Assembly (NCBI GenBank): GCA_017508485.1 | Contig: JAFVYV010000011.1 | Coordinates: 20,295-84,294, forward strand | Length of the DNA stretch: 64,000 nucleotides | Reading direction: 5' to 3' | Origin: Clostridia bacterium | GTDB taxonomy: Bacteria > Bacillota > Clostridia > Christensenellales > Borkfalkiaceae | Part shown: positions 1 to 8,417 of the stretch, in pieces | Layout: each line of letters starts with the position of its first letter | How positions within the stretch are numbered: the first letter of the stretch is position 1 | Translations under genes and position numbers: made by a program | Notes under the pieces: generated by a model | What the model saw: the letters and a program-made list of their open reading frames with translations, nothing else | Told to the model about the DNA's origin: nothing | Database searches by the model: none

Positions 1-56
1 GTATTATACAAAAAAGGTTTTATCATAAATGATAAAAATAAAAAAGGAGAGAAAAA

Positions 57-671
57 ATGAAAAAACTAGGTATACTTATTGCATTAATTCTTTGCGTTAC
101 TATCGGTGGCGTTTACGCTACTTGGACATATACGCAAAACACAGACGTAGCCGATGAAACTATTAACATGACAATGAACTTAACTGACGTTGCATATAGC
201 GGTTCTTACGGTACTTATGAAATTAACACAGATTCTTTAAAGTTAAAGATTGACCCTAAAAAAGACACAACTCACACGACTGCACTTTACATTGAAGGTC
301 AAATCGTAATTACTTTTACACCTAACTCTGTTGCTCCAGAAGAAGTAAAAGAAAATGGTGTTGCTTCTACCTTTCAGTTTGGTTTAACAAACGCTAACTG
401 GACTTATGACGATGGTGACGGCGCTAAAAAGCTTATTACTTTAGCACACGACGAAGCTGAAGATATCGTTTGGGGCGAACCTGATGAAAACGGCGTATTT
501 ACTTACATAATTACTGCTGAAGCTCTTGCTGAACACATTAATTTAGCAGAATTCAACCTAGATACAAAGGTTAAGTATGACGAATTTAATACAGTTTTAG
601 GTAATGGTCAAATTACTATCACAGTTAGTGACGGTATAACTGCTACAAACCCTATTCCAAACAATCAATAA
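57..671 (+). CDS. Exported protein with SipW-cognate (TasA/camelysin-class) signal peptide; candidate major matrix/fibre subunit
   Basis: ATG preceded by AAGGAGAG (44-51). The N-terminus is MKK plus a hydrophobic helix ending IGGVYATWTY. The same GG-x-aromatic-A-T-W pattern occurs in the two downstream paralogous N-termini and resembles the TasA ...GGGTWA|AFND signal. It has its own terminator (688-720) and lies next to a SipW-type peptidase gene. Confidence 0.7.
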   Translation: MKKLGILIALILCVTIGGVYATWTYTQNTDVADETINMTMNLTDVAYSGSYGTYEINTDSLKLKIDPKKDTTHTTALYIEGQIVITFTPNSVAPEEVKENGVASTFQFGLTNANWTYDDGDGAKKLITLAHDEAEDIVWGEPDENGVFTYIITAEALAEHINLAEFNLDTKVKYDEFNTVLGNGQITITVSDGITATNPIPNNQ

Positions 672-687
672 TTGATACTGACATAAT

Positions 688-720
688 AAAGCCAGTCGTT
701 TTTTATCGGCTGGCTTTTTA
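688..720 (+). terminator. Rho-independent terminator after the 204-aa exported protein gene
   Basis: Stem GCCAGTCG (691-698) pairs with CGGCTGGC (707-714), with one G-U pair, followed by a T-run. Confidence 0.7.
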
Positions 721-745
721 TACATTTTTACTACAGTGACGAAAA

Positions 746-2005
746 ATGACAAAATTTGAGATATATTCTTTAATTCTTTGCATTATCGTTTTCGTTATGC
801 TTGTTAGCCTTTTTTCTTATATGCTAACTATTTTGATAAAGCAAACGTTAAAACACGTAAATGCAGGGTTAGAAGATGAAAATTTAATAAAAGAGTTTAC
901 TAACGCTAAAAAGCCAAGCAACTTTTCAAAATGGTTTAACGCAATTTTGAACGGTTTACTTTGCTTAATTTTTGGCGTTATTTTCGTTTCGTCACTTTAT
1001 ATAAGTTGTACTCAAAACACTTATTTTGAAAACGTACCTACTTATAGGGTTGTTTTAACTTCTTCTATGGAAGAAAAGCACGAAGATAACAAATATCTAA
1101 TAGAAAACAACCTAAACAACCAAATTAGCGCGTTTGATTTGATAGTTACTTACAAAATTCCTGATGAAGAAGACCTTAAACTTTACGACATAGTGGTTTA
1201 TGAAGTTGACGGAGTTTTAGTAGTGCATAGAATTGTTGGTATTGAAGACCCTAACCAATACCACCCTAACGAAAGATACTTCCTTTTACAAGGGGACGCA
1301 GTTGGTAAGCCTGACCGTTTCCCTGTAAAGTACTCTCAAATGAAGGGTATTTATAAAAATCAAAAAATACCGTTTATAGGTAGTTTCGTTCTATTTATGC
1401 AATCTCCTGCAGGTTGGCTTTGCATATTGTTGGTTGCAGGTAGTATAATTTTAACACCTATTCTTGAAAAGAAACTTTTAAATGCAAGAAAGGCAAGATT
1501 TTTACTTATAACTAACGGCTCTATTATAACGGAAGAAGTTACTATAACGGAAGATTTTGAAGATAACTTCCTTGACGACGGCGAAAATATTAAAGTAGTT
1601 CAAGCAAAAACTTTTGTGGAAAAACTTGAACTTTCAAGCGAACAGGTTAAAAAGAGATACAAAAAGATTGTTGATACGCTTAACCGTATTGAAGATATTC
1701 GTTTAACGGAAGCAAAAAGCCAACATTCTTATAAGGTTAAGGCAGAAGGTATTGCAAGGTTGTTCTTTAGGGGTAAAGACCTTAACGTAGCACTTCCGTT
1801 AAATCCAGGATATTATAAATATACAAAATATATCTTTACCGACCTTTCTTCTTCAACAAAACACCAAAACTACCCTGTATGTATTAAACTATCTAACGAT
1901 AGACATACCGACTGGGTTTGTGATTTAATTTTAGTTATTGCAGAAGAATTTGGACTTAAGGTTTTAGATAAGCCAGTTGACCCTAAGTTGGCAAATGGTG
2001 AATAG
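746..2005 (+). CDS. sipW: Signal peptidase I, SipW / ER-archaeal (S26B) type, with two N-terminal TM helices and a ~170-aa cytoplasmic C-terminal extension
   Basis: Catalytic Ser box VVLTSSMEE, His box VVHRIVG and LLQGDAVG box, as in Ser/His-type SipW peptidases. A TM helix (GWLCILLVAGSIILTPIL) follows the catalytic domain. An extra soluble domain (KTFVEKLELSSEQVKKRYKKIVDTL...VCDLILVIAEEFGLKV) comes after it. Confidence 0.75.
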   Translation: MTKFEIYSLILCIIVFVMLVSLFSYMLTILIKQTLKHVNAGLEDENLIKEFTNAKKPSNFSKWFNAILNGLLCLIFGVIFVSSLYISCTQNTYFENVPTYRVVLTSSMEEKHEDNKYLIENNLNNQISAFDLIVTYKIPDEEDLKLYDIVVYEVDGVLVVHRIVGIEDPNQYHPNERYFLLQGDAVGKPDRFPVKYSQMKGIYKNQKIPFIGSFVLFMQSPAGWLCILLVAGSIILTPILEKKLLNARKARFLLITNGSIITEEVTITEDFEDNFLDDGENIKVVQAKTFVEKLELSSEQVKKRYKKIVDTLNRIEDIRLTEAKSQHSYKVKAEGIARLFFRGKDLNVALPLNPGYYKYTKYIFTDLSSSTKHQNYPVCIKLSNDRHTDWVCDLILVIAEEFGLKVLDKPVDPKLANGE

Positions 2006-2006
2006 T

Positions 2007-3401
2007 ATGAAAAAGAGTATTGTATTATTCGCCTTTATAGCAGTTATAACCTTAATAGCATCTATCGGTGGCACTTTTGCTACTTGGTATTTTGCAGAAG
2101 AACCACCTACTCCCGTAATGAAGTCTGAAGATATAGGCATTTCTGAATTTGAATATAAGCCTTTCCAAGGAGTATATATAGATTCAATAATAGTATATGA
2201 TTTTAAGAACGTAACTGAACGTGCAACGGAATTTACTAAACCTACCGATATTTACTCTTCAGTTAGGGCAGTAGCAGGGTCGTACATAACTTATAAGGTT
2301 ACTTTTCATAATAACAGTTCGGTTAACCATTGGTTTGTAAAAAAATCTTTTACAAACTCATTAGTTCAAAACTCTTTGGTGGATAAACAAAATGGTGTTA
2401 CGATAACGCTGAAGGACCACCCTGGCGATAATTATTCTACATTTAATAATGAAGACTGGATTCCTGCAAACACCTATCGTGACGTTTATATTACCTATAC
2501 GTTTGGCTCTAATGCTATTAATGAAGTAACAACCTTTGTTTCATATATTTTTGGCGAAAAGATGGATGCCGTTTATACAAACTTTGTAGATATATTAAAC
2601 AATCAAGAGACGTATTCTTTTTTAGCAAAAGCCTTTGATGATAAATATTCAGCAACAGGCGAAGTTGTAATTGCAAATTTAGGCAAAGAAAAAGAAATAT
2701 TTGATACACTTTTTGGTGGTGACGTTACCATTAACGTTGACGGGCAAGACGTTCCTGTAACCATTATGATTAGGCGTGAAAACGTAGATGGCAAAAACAC
2801 GGGGGATGCTTATGCTAACGGACCAACTGGTTGCGAATACACGTTGTATATAACCATTGATGAATTAGATGCAAACAACAATCCTACGGGTAAAGCAACA
2901 GTCTTTGCCGTTACCTATTCTGAAGGGGGAATTTCTAATCAAGACAAATGGTATCAAGTTGGCGAATTGTATGAAGGTACTTCTTCTCTTGACGGCTATT
3001 TAGGGGAAGATGCTTTTGATTATACAACTTGGGAAGCCGTTCCTAAAGAATATATTGTTGCAGATGGAATAACCTATAAAATTGGTTTAGAACAAGGCGA
3101 CCAATATCAAAAGATGAAAAAACTTGAAGAAATTATGGCTGTTAGAGATAACGAAATCTTTAACAAAATTAATAATACGCAAATTCTAAAAAAGGTGTAC
3201 GCTATTATTCACAATGCCCAAAACAAAGGAAAGCCAGGTTATGACATTTTAAAACAAGCGTTTGAAGATGCATCACCATTTTATACCGTTAACAATAACG
3301 GTGGAGATATTCCTGTTAACACCAACTGCACAAGGGCTGAAATATTGCCATATATTGAAGCAATTCAAAAAGCGTTAGATTACTATAACCAAGTTAACTA
3401 A
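2007..3401 (+). CDS. Exported 464-aa protein with SipW-class signal peptide (accessory fibre/matrix component candidate)
   Basis: I prefer the ATG at 2007, 1 nt after the sipW TAG stop, over the TTG at 1977. It gives MKKSIVLFAFIAVITLIASIGGTFATWYFAEEPPTPV, which parallels the 3450 gene. The remainder has no motif I recognise. Confidence 0.7.
   Translation: MKKSIVLFAFIAVITLIASIGGTFATWYFAEEPPTPVMKSEDIGISEFEYKPFQGVYIDSIIVYDFKNVTERATEFTKPTDIYSSVRAVAGSYITYKVTFHNNSSVNHWFVKKSFTNSLVQNSLVDKQNGVTITLKDHPGDNYSTFNNEDWIPANTYRDVYITYTFGSNAINEVTTFVSYIFGEKMDAVYTNFVDILNNQETYSFLAKAFDDKYSATGEVVIANLGKEKEIFDTLFGGDVTINVDGQDVPVTIMIRRENVDGKNTGDAYANGPTGCEYTLYITIDELDANNNPTGKATVFAVTYSEGGISNQDKWYQVGELYEGTSSLDGYLGEDAFDYTTWEAVPKEYIVADGITYKIGLEQGDQYQKMKKLEEIMAVRDNEIFNKINNTQILKKVYAIIHNAQNKGKPGYDILKQAFEDASPFYTVNNNGGDIPVNTNCTRAEILPYIEAIQKALDYYNQVN
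2075..2110 (+). repeat. 36-nt block identical to 3521-3556 (encodes FATWYFAEEPPT)
   Basis: TTTTGCTACTTGGTATTTTGCAGAAGAACCACCTAC is present in both paralogs. The flanking codons are conserved only at the protein level. Confidence 0.9.
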
Positions 3402-3449
3402 CTTATACAAAAAATAGTACAAAAATAACGAAAAAAAGGAGGTATAAAA

Positions 3450-4049
3450 ATGTCAAAAAAAATAATGATTTCTTCAATATTTTTGGCTATATTGATATTT
3501 TGTGCTTCCATAAGTGGAGTTTTTGCTACTTGGTATTTTGCAGAAGAACCACCTACGCCTGTAAGTAAGGCAGAAGACATTGGAATATCTGAATTCGTTT
3601 GGAAGCCGGAAGAAATTTTGCCTGACGTTACGCCTGGTCAAAACTATTTAGACTTACACCAATCTATTTTAGAAAACGTAAAGGGTGGGCTTAACTCTTC
3701 AAAAGATACTTTAGAAGATGCCGTGCTTAGTGATAGAGACGGACTACTTCACAGTTCGCAAAACGTTCAAGGTGGTAACTTAGCGCACTTATTTATTACA
3801 AGTGCAACAAGGGAACTTGATTTTATTGTAGAATACGTTTCCGACAACGAGTTTTTGGTTTATATGTATGAAAACGCAAAGGCAGAAACAGGTGCCGTTG
3901 GGGTAACCAGAATTGCAGTATATAAAACCATTTATCTTAAAACGGCTGGCGATTGGGACGGAGCAGAAGCACAATACGGTTTTGCAACCGTTGACTTCTT
4001 CCCTAGTAGTAATATTATGGCGATAGACGTTAAAACTTGGTCAAGATAA
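3450..4049 (+). CDS. Exported 199-aa protein with SipW-class signal peptide (accessory component candidate)
   Basis: AAAGGAGG RBS at 3435-3442. N-terminus MSKKIMISSIFLAILIFCASISGVFATWYFAEEPPTPVSKAEDIGISEF. Terminator at 4061-4097. Confidence 0.75.
   Translation: MSKKIMISSIFLAILIFCASISGVFATWYFAEEPPTPVSKAEDIGISEFVWKPEEILPDVTPGQNYLDLHQSILENVKGGLNSSKDTLEDAVLSDRDGLLHSSQNVQGGNLAHLFITSATRELDFIVEYVSDNEFLVYMYENAKAETGAVGVTRIAVYKTIYLKTAGDWDGAEAQYGFATVDFFPSSNIMAIDVKTWSR
3521..3556 (+). repeat. Second copy of the 36-nt identical block (see 2075-2110)
   Basis: Perfect identity read directly from the sequence. Confidence 0.9.
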
Positions 4050-4060
4050 CTTAAAATTAA

Positions 4061-4097
4061 AAGCAGTAGTTTTTGCTACTGCTTTTTTTATTTTTTT
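4061..4097 (+). terminator. Rho-independent terminator ending the SipW locus
   Basis: GCAGTAG (4063-4069) pairs with CTACTGC (4076-4082), followed by a long T-run. Confidence 0.8.
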
Positions 4098-5588: not shown

Positions 5589-6116
5589 ATGAAGAAAAAT
5601 TTGTTTGTTATTGAGTTTATAGGGCTAACTTTTACCGCCGTACTTGGCACGATACTTCATTTTTTGTACGAGTGGACGGGCTTAAAAGGACTTGCCGTTA
5701 TTTCCGCCGTGAACGAATCAACTTGGGAGCATATGAAACTTGTTTTCGTTCCGTACTTTATTTTTGCTGTTGCTCAAAGTTTTTTTAACAAAGATTATAA
5801 TAATTTTTGGTTTATTAAACTAATAGGCATTTTAACTTCTACCATTTCTATACCTATTTTGTTTTATACGCTAACGGGCTCTTTTGGAACACTTTCTGCC
5901 GTAGTTAATATTATAATATTTTTTGTTTCCGTATTTAACGGGTATTTTTTAGAGATATATTTATTTAACAAAATAAAAGGCAAAAAATGGTTAGAGTGGA
6001 TTTCTGTAGCCGTTATTATTGCTATATTTATACTATTTATAATTTTTACCTTCTATCCGCCAAAAATACCACTCTTTTTAGACCCTGTAACTAAAGGTTA
6101 TGGAATAACTAAATAA
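5589..6116 (+). CDS. Small polytopic membrane protein of unknown function (possibly DUF6512-like)
   Basis: Hydrophobic 175-aa ORF with an HFLYEW...VNESTWEHMKL motif. The family assignment is tentative and from memory only. Confidence 0.6.
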   Translation: MKKNLFVIEFIGLTFTAVLGTILHFLYEWTGLKGLAVISAVNESTWEHMKLVFVPYFIFAVAQSFFNKDYNNFWFIKLIGILTSTISIPILFYTLTGSFGTLSAVVNIIIFFVSVFNGYFLEIYLFNKIKGKKWLEWISVAVIIAIFILFIIFTFYPPKIPLFLDPVTKGYGITK

Positions 6117-6251
6117 AAACGACTGTCTTTTTTTAATAATTTTGCTATTTACAAAACAAAAAATAGGGTATATAATAATTAAGGATTACAAATTATTATC
6201 AATTTTACTTGGGTACGAAAAGATTATTTACTAAGGAAGGTAATATTATGC

Positions 6252-7112
6252 TTGTTAGAATGTTTAACTTTTGGTACTTTTTTTTGGGTTTTGATAGGTG
6301 CAGGGTTAACGGTCGGCTTATACTTTTTGTTAAGAAACAAAAGTTATAAAACTAAAAAGTGGGTAATTTTTTCTATTTTAGCGTTTGCGCTTATACTTCA
6401 CTTTCTAAAACTTTTAATACCACCTTATTCTACTAATGAAGAAATTAGGTTAAGAGATATTTGGTTTATAAATATTTGTGGGGCAAACATCTTTTTGTTT
6501 CCTTTTATATTTTTATCAAAAAGCAAAAGCGCAAAAGATTATATGTTCTATTTAGGGGTTATAAGTGGCTTTCTTGCCCTTCTTTACCCAACGGAAGCAA
6601 TAGGCAGAACGGTGGAAAACCCTTATATATTAGATACTATAAGATTTTATCTTCACCACATAATTTTATTTATGGCGCCACTACTTATGGTACTACTTGG
6701 CGTTCATAAAATAAGTTATAAAAGAGTTTTTAGTGCGCCTATCGGCTTACTACTTGTAATGCTTTTTATAATGCTAAACCAAGTTTTACAAAGCGAAATA
6801 GGGTTTATAAATTTAAGAAGTGAAGACTTTTTCAAGATAGGTTATAAAAACACTTCCTTTATTTGGGGACCTGGCGACGACGATATTGCGCAAATTTTTG
6901 TGGCAGTTTCGCCTAAAATTTTTAGAGTGATACCGTTTGGACCTTACGCTGGACAAGAAAAGTTTTGGCCGTGGTTTTGGATAGTCGTTCCTGTATTCGT
7001 TTACGTAACGCCACTTGCATTTTTAGTTTGTATGATTTTTGATGGAAAAGAGTTTATAAAAGATGCAAAAAACCTTTTTTTAAGAATAAAAAGTAAATTT
7101 AAAAGGGGTTAA
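6252..7112 (+). CDS. Polytopic integral membrane protein (YwaF/TIGR02206-like, tentative)
   Basis: Long hydrophobic ORF. The start is uncertain: the TTG at 6252 is in frame, while the best RBS serves an out-of-frame ATG at 6248 (see findings). Confidence 0.6.
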   Translation: MLECLTFGTFFWVLIGAGLTVGLYFLLRNKSYKTKKWVIFSILAFALILHFLKLLIPPYSTNEEIRLRDIWFINICGANIFLFPFIFLSKSKSAKDYMFYLGVISGFLALLYPTEAIGRTVENPYILDTIRFYLHHIILFMAPLLMVLLGVHKISYKRVFSAPIGLLLVMLFIMLNQVLQSEIGFINLRSEDFFKIGYKNTSFIWGPGDDDIAQIFVAVSPKIFRVIPFGPYAGQEKFWPWFWIVVPVFVYVTPLAFLVCMIFDGKEFIKDAKNLFLRIKSKFKRG

Positions 7113-7334
7113 TAAAAGATATAAATTAGGGGCTTAAAAATTTTAAGTCCCTTTTATTTTTTAGTAAATTAAATTTAATAGTGTAAAAAGGCTTATTTAA
7201 GCCGTGCTTTTGTTGTTTTTTGCGTTAAAAAACTTTTCTTTATTTTCTATTAAAACTAAAAGTGTTTATATTTTCTTGACAATAAATTTTAAAATGATAT
7301 AATTTTTATATAAAATACTTAAAAGGATATTGTT

Positions 7335-8417
7335 ATGAAGAAAGGGTTTTTAGGGTTTCTTGCAATAGTTTTCATATTGATGACGGCTATTTCAATGTAC
7401 TTTATTTCATTTTCAACTTCATATTACATAAATTATAAAGACTACGTTCTAAACTTTGGTTCTGAAGACTGGTTAGAAGACGGGGAAGATATTTATTCTT
7501 TCGCTAATGGTGATAAAAACAACGTAGGCAACTGGGACAGAACTTGGTACGGTCAAGAAATTAGAAAGTCAAACGGGGAACAATACATTTACCTTTACGA
7601 CAAGGGCAAAGATATGTTAGCCGTTAACGACAAGGGCGAAGCCGACCTTTCTTATGGTGGAGAATCAAGTTTTTACTATAGAACTAACGTTATAACTGAA
7701 GCGTCTGGCAAAAAAGACCCGTTAAAAATTAAACTAACCGTTGGCCGTGATGGTGAAGGTTGGTATGGAGAAAAGGGCGGTTGCTTACTATTTAGGCTTG
7801 GTTTTTATAGCAGTAAAGCGTTAACAATGACGGAAGAAGAATTTGCCCTTTACGGCTTTAAGAAGGAAGATTTTGAAGACGGTTGGTATTATTTAGACTT
7901 TACTAACAAGGTAAATAACGAAATTACTGAAGGTTGGTTTAATATTGACGCTGAATTTACCGTTCCTGAATTTTTCAACAACTTTGATGAAGCAACTAAC
8001 AAGGTTAACGACTTTGTTAAAGTTCAGTTTAAGTATAGCGACGGCGCAACGGAACAAGTTGAAGATATTGCGTTAAAAATAAAAGACATTGTTTTAACTG
8101 CTCCATCTACCGTTAAACTTATTTCAGAAGAAGGGGTTTTTGACATTAAACTTCCAAGTGACGTTGCAATTATAATTGATTTAGAAAACCCTGTGGTTTC
8201 TAAAGTTTATTTTGAAACGCAAGAAGAAAATATAAAGATTAGAACGCTTTTAACAAGTGAAGAATATAAGGTAGAAGGCAACAAAGTTATACTAAACAAA
8301 GACTATCTAGCAGGTTTAGCAAACGGACAAAATAGGTTTGTGTTAATCGTTAACGGTGCAGAGTGCAACTTTACGCTATTCGTTAGAAACGGACTTTTAG
8401 TGTTTGCTGAAGTATAA
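7335..8417 (+). CDS. N-terminally anchored or exported hypothetical protein
   Basis: MKKGFLGFLAIVFILMTAISMYFI anchor followed by an acidic, aromatic-rich soluble domain. A TTGACA-16-TATAAT promoter sits at about 7277-7304. No family recognised. Confidence 0.65.
   Translation: MKKGFLGFLAIVFILMTAISMYFISFSTSYYINYKDYVLNFGSEDWLEDGEDIYSFANGDKNNVGNWDRTWYGQEIRKSNGEQYIYLYDKGKDMLAVNDKGEADLSYGGESSFYYRTNVITEASGKKDPLKIKLTVGRDGEGWYGEKGGCLLFRLGFYSSKALTMTEEEFALYGFKKEDFEDGWYYLDFTNKVNNEITEGWFNIDAEFTVPEFFNNFDEATNKVNDFVKVQFKYSDGATEQVEDIALKIKDIVLTAPSTVKLISEEGVFDIKLPSDVAIIIDLENPVVSKVYFETQEENIKIRTLLTSEEYKVEGNKVILNKDYLAGLANGQNRFVLIVNGAECNFTLFVRNGLLVFAEV

Follow-up and report, generated by a model that had tools for sequence, protein, structure and literature searches.

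The locus reported here is best compared with the strand-swapping fibers of the TasA, Tafi, and AbpX systems. In TasA, the donor strand is the first 11 residues of the mature protein, including F29 (PMC9674648). The layout of the Tafi/AbpX donor-strand filament loci has also been published (PMC11821415; PMC12337348; bioRxiv 10.64898/2026.01.04.697558). AbpX-like subunits are reported to have an aromatic residue at position 2, a pI of about 4, and about 15% Asp/Glu; AbpX fibrils pack into a para-crystalline lattice; and DUF5305 is sometimes fused to SPase I (AbpX preprint, bioRxiv 10.64898/2026.01.04.697558).

A conserved operon without a name occurs in uncultured gut Clostridia. It encodes a small secreted protein with signals for high expression, a divergent signal peptidase dedicated to the system, and one or two accessories with the N-terminal motif of the small protein. 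In the window (the whole 64-kb stretch of DNA that we analysed), positions 57-4049 contain four ORFs, all on the + strand, as are all features below: P1 (204 aa, 57..671), the precursor of a putative major secreted subunit; the peptidase (419 aa, 746..2005); and the accessory proteins P3 (464 aa, 2007..3401) and P4 (199 aa, 3450..4049). The ORFs and the sequence bear out the first-pass annotation, which had described a SipW-like peptidase and three cargo proteins with a common motif. The start codon of P3 lies 1 nt past the peptidase stop (the ORF list places the start of this frame further 5', at a TTG at 1977), P4 has a strong Shine-Dalgarno sequence (AAGGAGGT), and the operon ends at an intrinsic terminator (4059..4096; 12-bp stem then T-run, MFE −15.9 kcal/mol, z = −4.8). 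P1, the peptidase, and a P3-type or P4-type gene are syntenic, in this order, across about 80 species of gut Clostridia (MAGs), and the three-gene order is kept in essentially every locus with room for it among the 80 species' loci that we examined. Thus, co-occurrence in related genomes, which had been suggested as a check, takes the form of tight synteny. The locus had been described as a four-gene unit, but its conserved core is three genes: most species have a P3-type or a P4-type gene, not both (a P4-type body is found 3' of the peptidase gene in ~43 of the 80 loci). The proposed "three-component assembly" was thus overstated: in most genomes, one of P3 and P4 takes the place of the other.

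The second gene had been read as an atypical SipW peptidase, and this identification holds. HMM matches and alignments of the catalytic boxes indicate a divergent S26B (SipW/archaeal/ER-type) signal peptidase with intact catalytic residues, which falls well short of the curated cut-offs (42 bits for NCBIfam SipW, with a cut-off of 190, and 34 bits for TIGR02228, with a cut-off of 51.85). All 30 homologues match both the SipW and the archaeal SPase models, and when these 30 are aligned, S107, M108, H161, R162, G183, D184, and D190 are invariant. The predicted nucleophile is Ser107 in an LTSSME box (codon at 1064..1066) and the predicted general base is His161 in a VVHRIV box (codon at 1226..1228), while Asp184 and Asp190 are in a GDAVGKPD box (1295..1315). 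A bona fide peptidase that passes TIGR02228 (from locus L087, with a DSM box at the Ser) aligns with the window's enzyme at the Ser, His, and Asp boxes, and the His and GD..D boxes also align to human SEC11A (VHRV and KGDNNAVDD). By hydropathy and charge, there are three hydrophobic segments (residues ~8-33, 62-90, and 210-245), with the catalytic domain between the last two and a C-terminal tail that is probably in the cytoplasm. This tail includes a module of ~127 aa from an unnamed family (residues 284-412, 1595..1981), and peptidases from 15 species have one to four copies of it in tandem. The module matches nothing in Pfam or the PDB. By hhalign, it shares homology with repeats in the cytoplasmic part of a Clostridial DUF5305 protein (probability 98.4%, E = 6.5e-15).

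P1, P3, and P4 have in common a Sec-type leader that ends in G-G/S-x-[YF]-A and is followed by T-W-x-[YF]. With a slash at the predicted cleavage site, the N-termini are MKK-LGILIALILCVTIGGVYA/TWTY (P1), MKKS-IVLFAFIAVITLIASIGGTFA/TWYF (P3), and MSKK-IMISSIFLAILIFCASISGVFA/TWYF (P4). The signal peptide of P1 (MKKLGILIALILCVTIGGVYA, residues 1-21, 57..119), as read by eye, starts with a Lys-rich n-region, continues with a hydrophobic core, and has V and A at −3 and −1, respectively; cleavage is predicted after Ala21. The mature N-terminal segment that follows (TWTYTQNTDVADETINMTMNLTD, residues 22-44, 120..188) is a candidate donor strand on the basis of its conservation and low pLDDT. Across 79 species, T15, G17, G18, V19, Y20, A21, T22, W23, Y25, and D30 of P1 are at least 90% conserved, and identity in the body drops to ~33%; the leader/cleavage motif and mature residues +1 to +4 are the best-conserved part of the protein, and residues 22-34 are invariant in closer homologues. 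Conservation of this motif also reaches at least 90% within the P3 and P4 families (G23, A26, and W28 are invariant in the P4-family alignment). Such conservation is far beyond chance. When we scanned open frames in all six frames of the window for [GSA]G.[YFW]A.[WFY], only P3 and P4 were found; P1, at the window edge, was dropped by the stop-codon filter, and its motif is visible in the ORF translation.

Only the N-terminal 45-57 residues align among P1, P3, and P4, which agrees with the original description of a common leader and cleavage motif on unrelated, unnamed bodies. P3 consists of a signal (residues 1-25), an adapter (residues 26-50), a beta-rich body, and a C-terminal helical domain. 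P4 consists of a signal (residues 1-26), an adapter (residues 27-51), and a body of ~145 aa, and its likeness to P3 is confined to residues 1-57. From the sequences and the P3/P4 alignment, the adapters are TWYFAEEPPTPVMKSEDIGISEFEY for P3 (predicted mature residues 1-25, 2082..2156) and TWYFAEEPPTPVSKAEDIGISEFVW for P4 (3528..3602). Exactly as had been noted, the two predicted mature N-termini are near-identical, TWYFAEEPPTPV(M/S)K(S/A)EDIGISEF, and in the DNA they correspond to a direct repeat of 104 nt (2058-2161 and 3504-3607), whose copies are 79% identical and have 32 nt of unbroken identity at the core. The P1 segment differs from those of P3 and P4 past position +5.

The best single-sequence matches of the peptidase in the PDB are streptococcal SipA and LepA (E ~0.1), which are not known to have the catalytic residues. 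By analogy, the protein could be a non-catalytic chaperone or scaffold, and the hydrophobic N-termini of P1, P3, and P4 could be uncleaved signal anchors. We consider this very improbable: the Ser, the His, and both Asp are invariant in the 30 homologues, positions −3 (V/T) and −1 (A) of the leaders are invariant and obey the SPase I rule, and the locus contains neither LPXTG signals nor a sortase.

Instead, we propose that the locus is a self-contained system for extracellular assembly, in which P1 polymerizes by donor-strand complementation and P3 and P4 are accessories that use the common N-terminal module (probability roughly 0.55). Sec would export the three proteins, and the co-encoded S26B (SipW/TafD-like) signal peptidase would cut them after the invariant G-x-[YF]-A to expose a mature N-terminus of x-W-x-[YF]. 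Once free, the ~20-residue N-terminal segment of P1 would enter the next subunit as a beta-strand, with Trp2 as an aromatic clamp, and this donor-strand complementation would build an acidic fiber or lattice. P3 and P4 may be sub-stoichiometric accessories (nucleator, tip, adaptor, or anchor) that use the common N-terminal module to join the assembly, in the way of TapA with TasA or TafC/TafE with TafA.

The expression signals of P1 fit this proposal. A −10 box (TATTAT, 2..7) is separated by a 17-nt spacer from a −35 box (TTGACA) just 5' of the window edge; in locus L001, whose upstream sequence is identical to the window's, TTGACA-17-TATTAT matches at 11 of 12 positions. Of 78 related loci, 63 have a sigma-A-type promoter that matches at 10 or more of 12 positions in the 150 nt before P1; among shuffled controls, 5 of 78 do. 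The Shine-Dalgarno sequence, AGGAG (45..49), was read from the sequence 7 nt 5' of the ATG, and AGGAG-type sequences precede P1 in 73 of 76 loci. The claim that the ribosome-binding site of P1 is the strongest does not hold, because that of P4 (AAGGAGGT) is no weaker. The gap between P1 and the peptidase gene contains a hairpin with a U-run (683..730; MFE −18 kcal/mol, z = −6.1), an intrinsic terminator or attenuator. This terminator had been called leaky-looking, but the hairpin is strong and gives no sign of leakiness; 97% of 79 loci have its equivalent (median MFE −24.7, median z = −4.9; upstream control, −11). In most loci, then, P1 lies between a near-consensus sigma-A promoter and a strong hairpin, as would be expected of a major structural subunit; together with the good ribosome-binding site, this layout upholds the first-pass view of P1. 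The promoter would drive production of P1 in large amounts, and the hairpin would limit read-through into the downstream genes.

S-layer genes also typically have a strong promoter, a strong ribosome-binding site, and a hairpin at the 3' end. With its very strong housekeeping-type promoter and its own strong ribosome-binding site and 3' hairpin, P1 could assemble in two dimensions, as a surface layer, sheath, or para-crystalline matrix, and not as discrete fibers, with P3 or P4 as the tether to the envelope. The strong acidity of P1 and the lattice of AbpX fibrils are compatible with this, but mature P1 is just 20 kDa and has no SLH, CWB2, or other wall-binding modules. We consider a surface layer quite unlikely, and it differs from our proposal only in the geometry of assembly.

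P1, P3, and P4 have no matches in Pfam (including Peptidase_M73) or NCBIfam (including TIGR04088), in line with the first-pass reading, which could place none of the mature domains in a named family; the two models put forward at that stage, TIGR04088 and PF12389, matched none of them. The P1 family (443 clusters at 90% identity, 745 at 50% identity; ~180-240 aa) and the P3 family (284 clusters) are entirely unnamed, and we found no homology of P1, P3, or P4 to known fiber subunits. AF2 monomer models are confident for the body of P1 (pLDDT 83-94 for residues 45-195, below 60 for residues 22-44) and for P3 (85 overall, below 50 for residues 21-50). The 20-30 mature N-terminal residues are highly conserved yet unplaced in both models, and the corresponding segment is reported to be likewise unplaced, with low pLDDT, in the AbpX monomer model (bioRxiv 10.64898/2026.01.04.697558). 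When the P1 and P3 models were searched with Foldseek against the PDB, where the TasA, AbpA, thread, and Tafi filaments are deposited, no match reached E ≤ 0.001 (query-normalised TM-scores were at most ~0.3). The predicted structures do not bear out the suggested likeness to TasA: the models resemble neither TasA nor any solved pilin. These negative results count against the assembly proposal.

These results bear on another explanation, that the operon is dedicated to the maturation and secretion of non-polymerising exoproteins, soluble or surface-bound (adhesins, binding proteins, or enzymes), and that the motif is just a recognition site for the peptidase. The motif does cover positions −5 to +4 of the cleavage site, as a substrate-recognition element would, and the P1 segment diverges from those of P3 and P4 past position +5. 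Also, the bodies are unrelated to one another and like none of the known pilins, and no LPXTG, SLH, or C-terminal TM segment is visible as an anchor in the three cargo proteins, which weighs against the fiber proposal too. However, this would leave two features unexplained: the conservation of 20-30 residues past the cleavage site that have no structure in the monomer models, and the expression signals of P1, whose arrangement is that of a major subunit. Moreover, every characterised locus with this arrangement (SipW-TasA-TapA, TafD-TafG-TafA/C/E, and AbpX) makes filaments. We therefore view a pure secretion module as unlikely.

Other loci connect the operon to a locus type that recent papers assign to donor-strand filaments. 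Six loci encode P3-like bodies that are ~50% identical to the window's but have a different N-terminus, G[YF]A/xLx[DE]xLxIxGxA, which marks the N-terminus as a module. In five of them (L087, L089, L090, L092, and L094), genes for a multi-TM S26 peptidase, a DUF5305 protein, and a small subunit whose N-terminus is of that class lie beside the P3-like gene, which is the published layout of Tafi/AbpX loci; the sixth (L091) has the same gene order, and its large protein has no recorded DUF5305 match. Covariation of adapters by locus is weak in the sister loci (6.7 versus 5.2 identities of 16). The link to DUF5305-type loci holds through both the P3 body and the common cytoplasmic module, as the tail of the window's peptidase resembles the cytoplasmic repeats of DUF5305 proteins. 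Overall, the first-pass reading is partly supported: it stands for the peptidase type, common leader, synteny, and P1 layout, and this link adds to it, but neither TIGR04088 or PF12389 matches nor a TasA-like structure support it, and its three components overstate the case.

Mature P1 is predicted to have 183 residues (20.1 kDa) with no Cys, and it resembles AbpX in its pI of 4.1, its 15.8% Asp+Glu, and its Trp at position 2. In all of the predicted mature cargo proteins, this Trp is the counterpart of the "aromatic clamp" of AbpX and of F29 in TasA. Position 4 differs: it is Tyr or Phe in the window's proteins, whereas an acidic residue is conserved in AbpX-like strands. The locus looks like an undescribed variation on the strand-swapping fibers of TasA, Tafi, and AbpX.

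We think that the four genes at window 57-4049 encode an extracellular assembly of the strand-donation type with its own dedicated signal peptidase, in which P1 is the major subunit and P3 and P4 are accessory subunits that join via a shared N-terminal module (we give this reading a probability of about 55%). Cleavage at A/T and polymerisation are inferred, as are the parts that P3 and P4 would play. We are considerably more confident in a weaker claim, that the locus combines a dedicated S26B peptidase with cognate, co-evolving exported substrates, of which P1 is the abundant one.

The four ORFs are on the same strand and encode P1 (57-671, 204 aa), a 419-aa membrane protein that is the peptidase (746-2005), P3 (2007-3401, 464 aa if counted from an ATG that lies 1 nt after the peptidase stop codon), and P4 (3450-4049, 199 aa). 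P1, P3, and P4 have Sec-type leaders, with a Lys-rich n-region and then a hydrophobic core, and their ORFs read IGGVYA/TWTY, IGGTFA/TWYF, and ISGVFA/TWYF, respectively, where the slash marks the predicted signal peptidase cleavage point. So, the three exported proteins do share the cleavage and N-terminal motif that the first-pass annotation described, and its claim of a nearly identical mature N-terminus for the 464-aa and 199-aa proteins also holds, as P3 and P4 are nearly identical over the next 25 residues. In a six-frame scan of the 64-kb window, no open frame beyond those of P1, P3, and P4 had the motif. (Because it lies at the window edge, P1 was itself excluded by the stop-codon filter of the scan, and its motif was read from its ORF.) The 5' ends of P3 and P4 form a direct repeat of 104 nt (2058-2161 and 3504-3607; 79% identity, with a 32-nt identical core). 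The two N-termini are far less similar in L040, a related locus that also has both the P3 and P4 genes, which suggests that the similarity in the window lineage is due to recent gene conversion or duplication. The locus does not resemble that of a sortase-assembled pilus, which would have LPXTG signals and a pilin-specific sortase: by inspection, P1, P3, and P4 have neither an LPXTG motif nor a C-terminal transmembrane (TM) segment, and no sortase was found among the genes neighbouring the locus. We also considered whether P1 is a lipoprotein and rejected this, as its leader has a Cys that is not conserved and a −1 residue that does not fit a lipobox.

We scanned one genome for each GTDB species with a pattern and identified 160 loci, and hence at least 160 GTDB species; we kept 80 of these loci, all from MAGs of gut Clostridia. 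Carriers include Christensenellaceae, Oscillospiraceae, and Acutalibacteraceae. In essentially every one of the 80 loci with room for it, the peptidase gene lies directly after P1, and next comes a protein that shares the leader motif (its body is P4-type in 40 loci and P3-type in 28). Just two loci besides the window have both types. Therefore, the core consists of three genes, and P3 and P4 are alternatives. The proposal of a four-gene locus is correct for the window, which does contain the four ORFs, but not for the core elsewhere; the synteny expected in related genomes is borne out, with P1, the peptidase, and a motif-bearing protein in this order across about 80 loci. As for SipW-cognate leaders, there is more than one paralogous leader beside the SipW-like peptidase (three in the window and two or three in about 80 loci). 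At another locus, L093, a P3-like gene (P0237, at 6001-7395) is surrounded by housekeeping genes, without a peptidase or small subunit close by, so P3-type proteins are not always encoded in the operon.

Conservation is concentrated in the leader motif. Across 79 species, whose P1 bodies are down to about 33% identical, conservation of P1 is highest at T15, G17, G18, V19, Y20, A21, T22, W23, and Y25 (at least 90% for each). In the P3 and P4 families, G-V-x-A-x-W likewise reaches at least 90% conservation, and the W at mature position +2 is conserved at this level in all three families.

The expression signals are also conserved. Matches of at least 10/12 to TTGACA-N16-18-TATAAT are found upstream of P1 in 63 of 78 loci, as compared to 5 of 78 shuffled controls. 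(For the window, the −10 box is at 2-7, and the −35 box, which lies outside the window, was seen in L001.) Between P1 and the peptidase gene, the window has a hairpin (MFE −18 kcal/mol, z = −6.1) and then a U-run. The equivalent hairpins in 79 loci have a median MFE of −24.7 and a median z of −4.9, and 97% are below z = −2.5, while the stem sequences vary between lineages. Downstream, the P3 gene lies immediately after the peptidase gene, an unstructured spacer of 48 nt separates P3 from P4, and a clean terminator (4059-4096) ends the operon. This layout is as expected for one abundant structural product with minor partners.

The genes directly upstream of the operon (L001 1-4943) encode a 647-aa D12-class DNA methyltransferase fusion (opposite strand), an unnamed protein of 461 aa, and a protein with two TM segments, and L005 and L006 have, further upstream, genes for a rolling-circle Rep (REP_ORF2-G2P) and HTH proteins. 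These may be a restriction-modification system or an integrated element that borders the operon. We do not consider the upstream genes (L001-L006) to be parts of the system, as they lack the motif and their content varies between contigs. Elsewhere in the window, a 360-aa protein (7335-8417) has an N-terminal membrane segment and a CBM_X2 match of 25.8 bits (cut-off 28.9); it is probably an unrelated surface protein because it lacks G-x-[YF]-A/x-W. There are no tRNA genes, and no Rfam families at the gathering threshold, in window 1-64000.

Over residues 124-236, the peptidase matches the NCBIfam models for SipW (NF046067) at 42 bits and for the archaeal-type enzymes (TIGR02228) at 34.3 bits, which is below the curated cut-offs of 190 and 51.85. 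All of 30 homologues, drawn from related loci, match both the SipW and the archaeal models (best E = 8.7e-15 and 2.9e-11), with none shown to reach a curated cut-off. The alignment of these homologues has seven invariant residues: S107, M108, H161, R162, G183, D184, and D190. First, S107 and M108 provide the Ser nucleophile in an S-x-S-M-type context, as in S26B, and align with the DSM box in a TIGR02228-passing peptidase. Second, the general base is His rather than Lys, within an H-R box typical of S26B, and H161 and R162 align to the VHRV box of human SEC11A. Third, G183, D184, and D190 align to KGDNNAVDD of SEC11A and supply the Asp of the GDN...D box of S26B. When we compared profiles, the His box and the GD...D box of the family aligned with those of SEC11A, and all three boxes aligned with those of the TIGR02228-passing peptidase, with a 15-residue insertion after the Ser box. 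This insertion explains why the HMM scores are low and why the HMMs miss the Ser box. Together, the invariant residues, the box alignments, and the model matches identify the window peptidase, at the sequence level, as a divergent S26B peptidase that is predicted to be catalytically intact. Its earlier label of "atypical SipW" is fair, as the S26B residues are intact, yet the SipW and TIGR02228 scores are below cut-off. If the leaders were instead uncleaved anchors, and the peptidase a chaperone-like pseudo-peptidase, then it is not obvious why its catalytic residues would be invariant, and we consider this explanation very improbable.

Hydropathy and the distribution of charges suggest that the peptidase has three membrane segments, with the catalytic domain outside the cell and the C-terminal tail inside. 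The tail contains a module of about 127 aa (1595-1981, residues 284-412) with no relatives in Pfam or PDB and no matches in a word-index homologue search; part of its consensus is ...KGKTLNVYL.L.P.EY..TKY.FTD.S..KK..NYPMRVK.TS.RQ.RW.... Peptidases from 15 species have one to four tandem copies, and the longest of these peptidases is 854 aa. (The module was seen in the window and in L035, L020, L013, L009, L007, L032, L033, L049, and L085.) Homologues of the window tail (residues 284-412) form the cytoplasmic repeats of a clostridial DUF5305 protein in L087 (L087 5261-7912; hhalign probability 98.4%, E = 6.5e-15). Such cytoplasmic modules, fused to a peptidase, bear on what accessory proteins of the DUF5305 type do. 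In three other species, the orthologous peptidase ends in a ribosomal uL15-type domain (PF00828, 47-52 bits, cut-off 21.5; L046 2333-3502, L053 8707-9819, and L063 8719-9852). This domain is on the predicted cytoplasmic side, and such a fusion was not expected.

The exported proteins do not belong to any Pfam or NCBIfam family. A Pfam scan at E ≤ 1, which included Peptidase_M73/TasA (PF12389), gave no family for P1 or P4, and the one match for P3, to the GA module, is spurious. TIGR04088 had no match at E ≤ 1 with the full proteins or at E ≤ 10 with the 50-residue N-termini, although the HMMER filters may drop weak matches to so short a model. So, neither TIGR04088 nor PF12389, the models that the first-pass annotation suggested as checks, matches the exported proteins, even at permissive E values or with isolated N-termini. 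The P1 family has 443 clusters at 90% identity and 745 at 50% identity, with members of about 180-240 aa, all of them unnamed, and the P3 family has 284 clusters. In profile-profile comparisons, the P1, P3, and P4 families are alike only over their N-terminal 45-57 residues.

Structure predictions point the same way for P1 and P3. The AF2 model of P1 has a confident body (residues 45-195, pLDDT 83-94), and residues 1-44 are mostly below 50-60; the model of P3 has a mean pLDDT of 85, with residues 21-50 below 50. [quoted passage not shown] Foldseek searches of PDB with the P1 and P3 models returned no structure at E ≤ 0.001, TasA, AbpA, thread, and Tafi subunits included, and hence no match to the jelly-roll fold of those subunits. 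(Matches of P3 to AP2 appendages, with E = 3e-3 and TM of about 0.1-0.2, are noise, and the P1 profile found only antibody noise among PDB sequences.) A dedicated peptidase and its substrates could also form a secretion module that does not polymerise; we consider this unlikely, and it would leave unexplained an N-terminal extension that is conserved but unplaced in the monomer models. Subunits might also be arranged in a lattice or with S-layer-like geometry, which seems to us somewhat less likely again.

Further support for strand donation by the shared N-terminal module comes from homologues of P3 (about 50% identity over the body) that lack the TW motif and start with G[YF]A/xLx[DE]xLxIxGxA. 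We looked at six such loci (L087 3299-9386, L089 5485-10401, L090 5404-10389, L091 1937-7395, L092 2682-7368, and L094 1837-7401), which are in other Clostridia and which we term sister loci. Their gene order is a small subunit (170-199 aa, of the same N-terminal class as the P3-like protein), a multi-TM S26 peptidase (those of L087 and L089 were scanned and pass TIGR02228 at 78-86 bits), a large protein (523-883 aa, with DUF5305 on record in five of the six, the exception being L091), and the P3-like protein. DUF5305 itself has no match in the window locus, and P1 has no homology to the sister small subunits. As the same P3 body is found with different N-termini, its N-terminal class, judged by sequence, follows that of the small subunit encoded alongside. 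This match of classes holds at every locus examined, and we rely on it alone: we set aside locus-by-locus co-variation within the six loci as weak (a slight excess, 6.7 versus 5.2 of 16). In both types of locus, a small major subunit is accompanied by a larger or minor subunit of the same N-terminal class (in loci of the window type, P1 with P3 and/or P4). The sister operons are probably bacterial loci of the AbpX/Tafi type. One P3 body whose N-terminal modules are swapped between two systems is a natural experiment on the specificity of entry into an assembly.

If the strand-donation reading is true, then abundant uncultured gut Clostridia build a surface fibre or matrix from protein families without a name, a Pfam model, or a structural relative, and the principle behind TasA, Tafi, and AbpX (a dedicated signal peptidase plus N-terminal strand donation) extends to new folds. 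The reading would also offer a way to study how these Clostridia aggregate or adhere in the gut, and the compact three-gene unit is suited to heterologous reconstitution. We found no descriptions of the P1, P3, or P4 families in the literature, and all are annotated as hypothetical. A bolder version, which is speculative and which we doubt, is that this is a structurally new class of Gram-positive filament formed by N-terminal strand donation, with folds unrelated to TasA or to solved pilins; that the peptidase has absorbed the cytoplasmic module of DUF5305 proteins, or in some species has a uL15-like tail instead; and that the complex docks ribosomes or RNA and so links translation and export to cleavage and polymerisation at a single site on the membrane.

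The TasA leader has a small-aromatic-Ala cleavage context, as do the leaders in the window. The tapA-sipW-tasA operon of Bacillus subtilis (PMC9674648) is also similar in that the gene for a dedicated ER/archaeal-type signal peptidase lies among those for its substrates, a major subunit is paired with an accessory protein with a similar N-terminus, and mature position 2 is aromatic (F29 in TasA and W in the window locus). The donor strand of TasA is mature residues 1-11, including F29, and the N-terminus of TapA mimics it (PMC9674648). In contrast, P1, P3, and P4 resemble neither TasA nor TapA in sequence or structure, the gene order differs, and TIGR04088 is unmatched in the window locus. Also, unlike SipW, the window peptidase has an extra N-terminal TM segment, the 15-residue insertion after the Ser box, and the cytoplasmic module. 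In Clostridium perfringens, sipW-bsaA-bsaB-bsaC also combines a clostridial SipW with several exported matrix proteins, including a large one, and donor-strand exchange has been proposed (PMC7395162; bioRxiv 10.1101/2024.11.04.621531). However, isopeptide bonds lock BsaA and BsaB, which are remote homologues of TasA, and BsaC is a vWA protein; we detected no member of these families in the window locus.

Haloarchaeal Tafi (tat-fimbriae) loci, and related DUF1102 clusters in Thermococcales and Archaeoglobales, are similar in a different way. In Tafi loci and the related Thermococcales clusters, small pilins are encoded alongside DUF5305 (TafG) and a dedicated SPase I (TafD), TafD is required for pilin processing, and Tafi assembly is by strand donation (PMC11821415, PMC12337348). 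As in the window locus, there is a dedicated S26 peptidase, small subunits (about 150-200 aa) and larger tip or adaptor subunits share N-terminal donor strands (candidate ones in the window), and the peptidase is conserved while the structural genes vary. The differences are that haloarchaeal export is by Tat rather than by Sec-type leaders, that TafG is a separate gene while the window has only a homologue of the cytoplasmic module of clostridial DUF5305 proteins, fused to the peptidase, and that the subunits have no detectable homology.

AbpX loci of archaea and Bacillota have the same layout, and their DUF5305 includes a cytoplasmic alpha/beta domain and is in some cases fused to SPase I (bioRxiv 10.64898/2026.01.04.697558). 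The AbpX donor strand starts with an aromatic clamp (mature W2), its N-terminal extension is unstructured in monomer predictions, and AbpX relatives have a pI of about 4 and about 15% Asp/Glu (bioRxiv 10.64898/2026.01.04.697558). P1 resembles AbpX in all three respects: predicted mature P1 starts with T1-W2 (20.1 kDa), it is acidic (pI 4.10, 15.8% Asp+Glu), and its N-terminal extension is unplaced in the monomer model. The closest parallel is with the sister loci, which have in common with the window locus both the cytoplasmic module and a P3-like protein (about 50% identical), and whose small subunit, peptidase, DUF5305-position protein, and P3-like protein parallel P1, the peptidase, and P3. 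They differ in the peptidase (three TM segments and 34 bits in the window versus multi-TM and 78-86 bits with TIGR02228), in the N-terminal class (xWx[YF] versus xLx[DE]xLxIxGxA, with an acidic position 4), and in their small subunits, to which P1 is unrelated. The logic of a dedicated peptidase and strand donation is known from TasA, Tafi, and AbpX, and what is new is the subunit families, the x-W-x-[YF] class, and the architecture of the peptidase.
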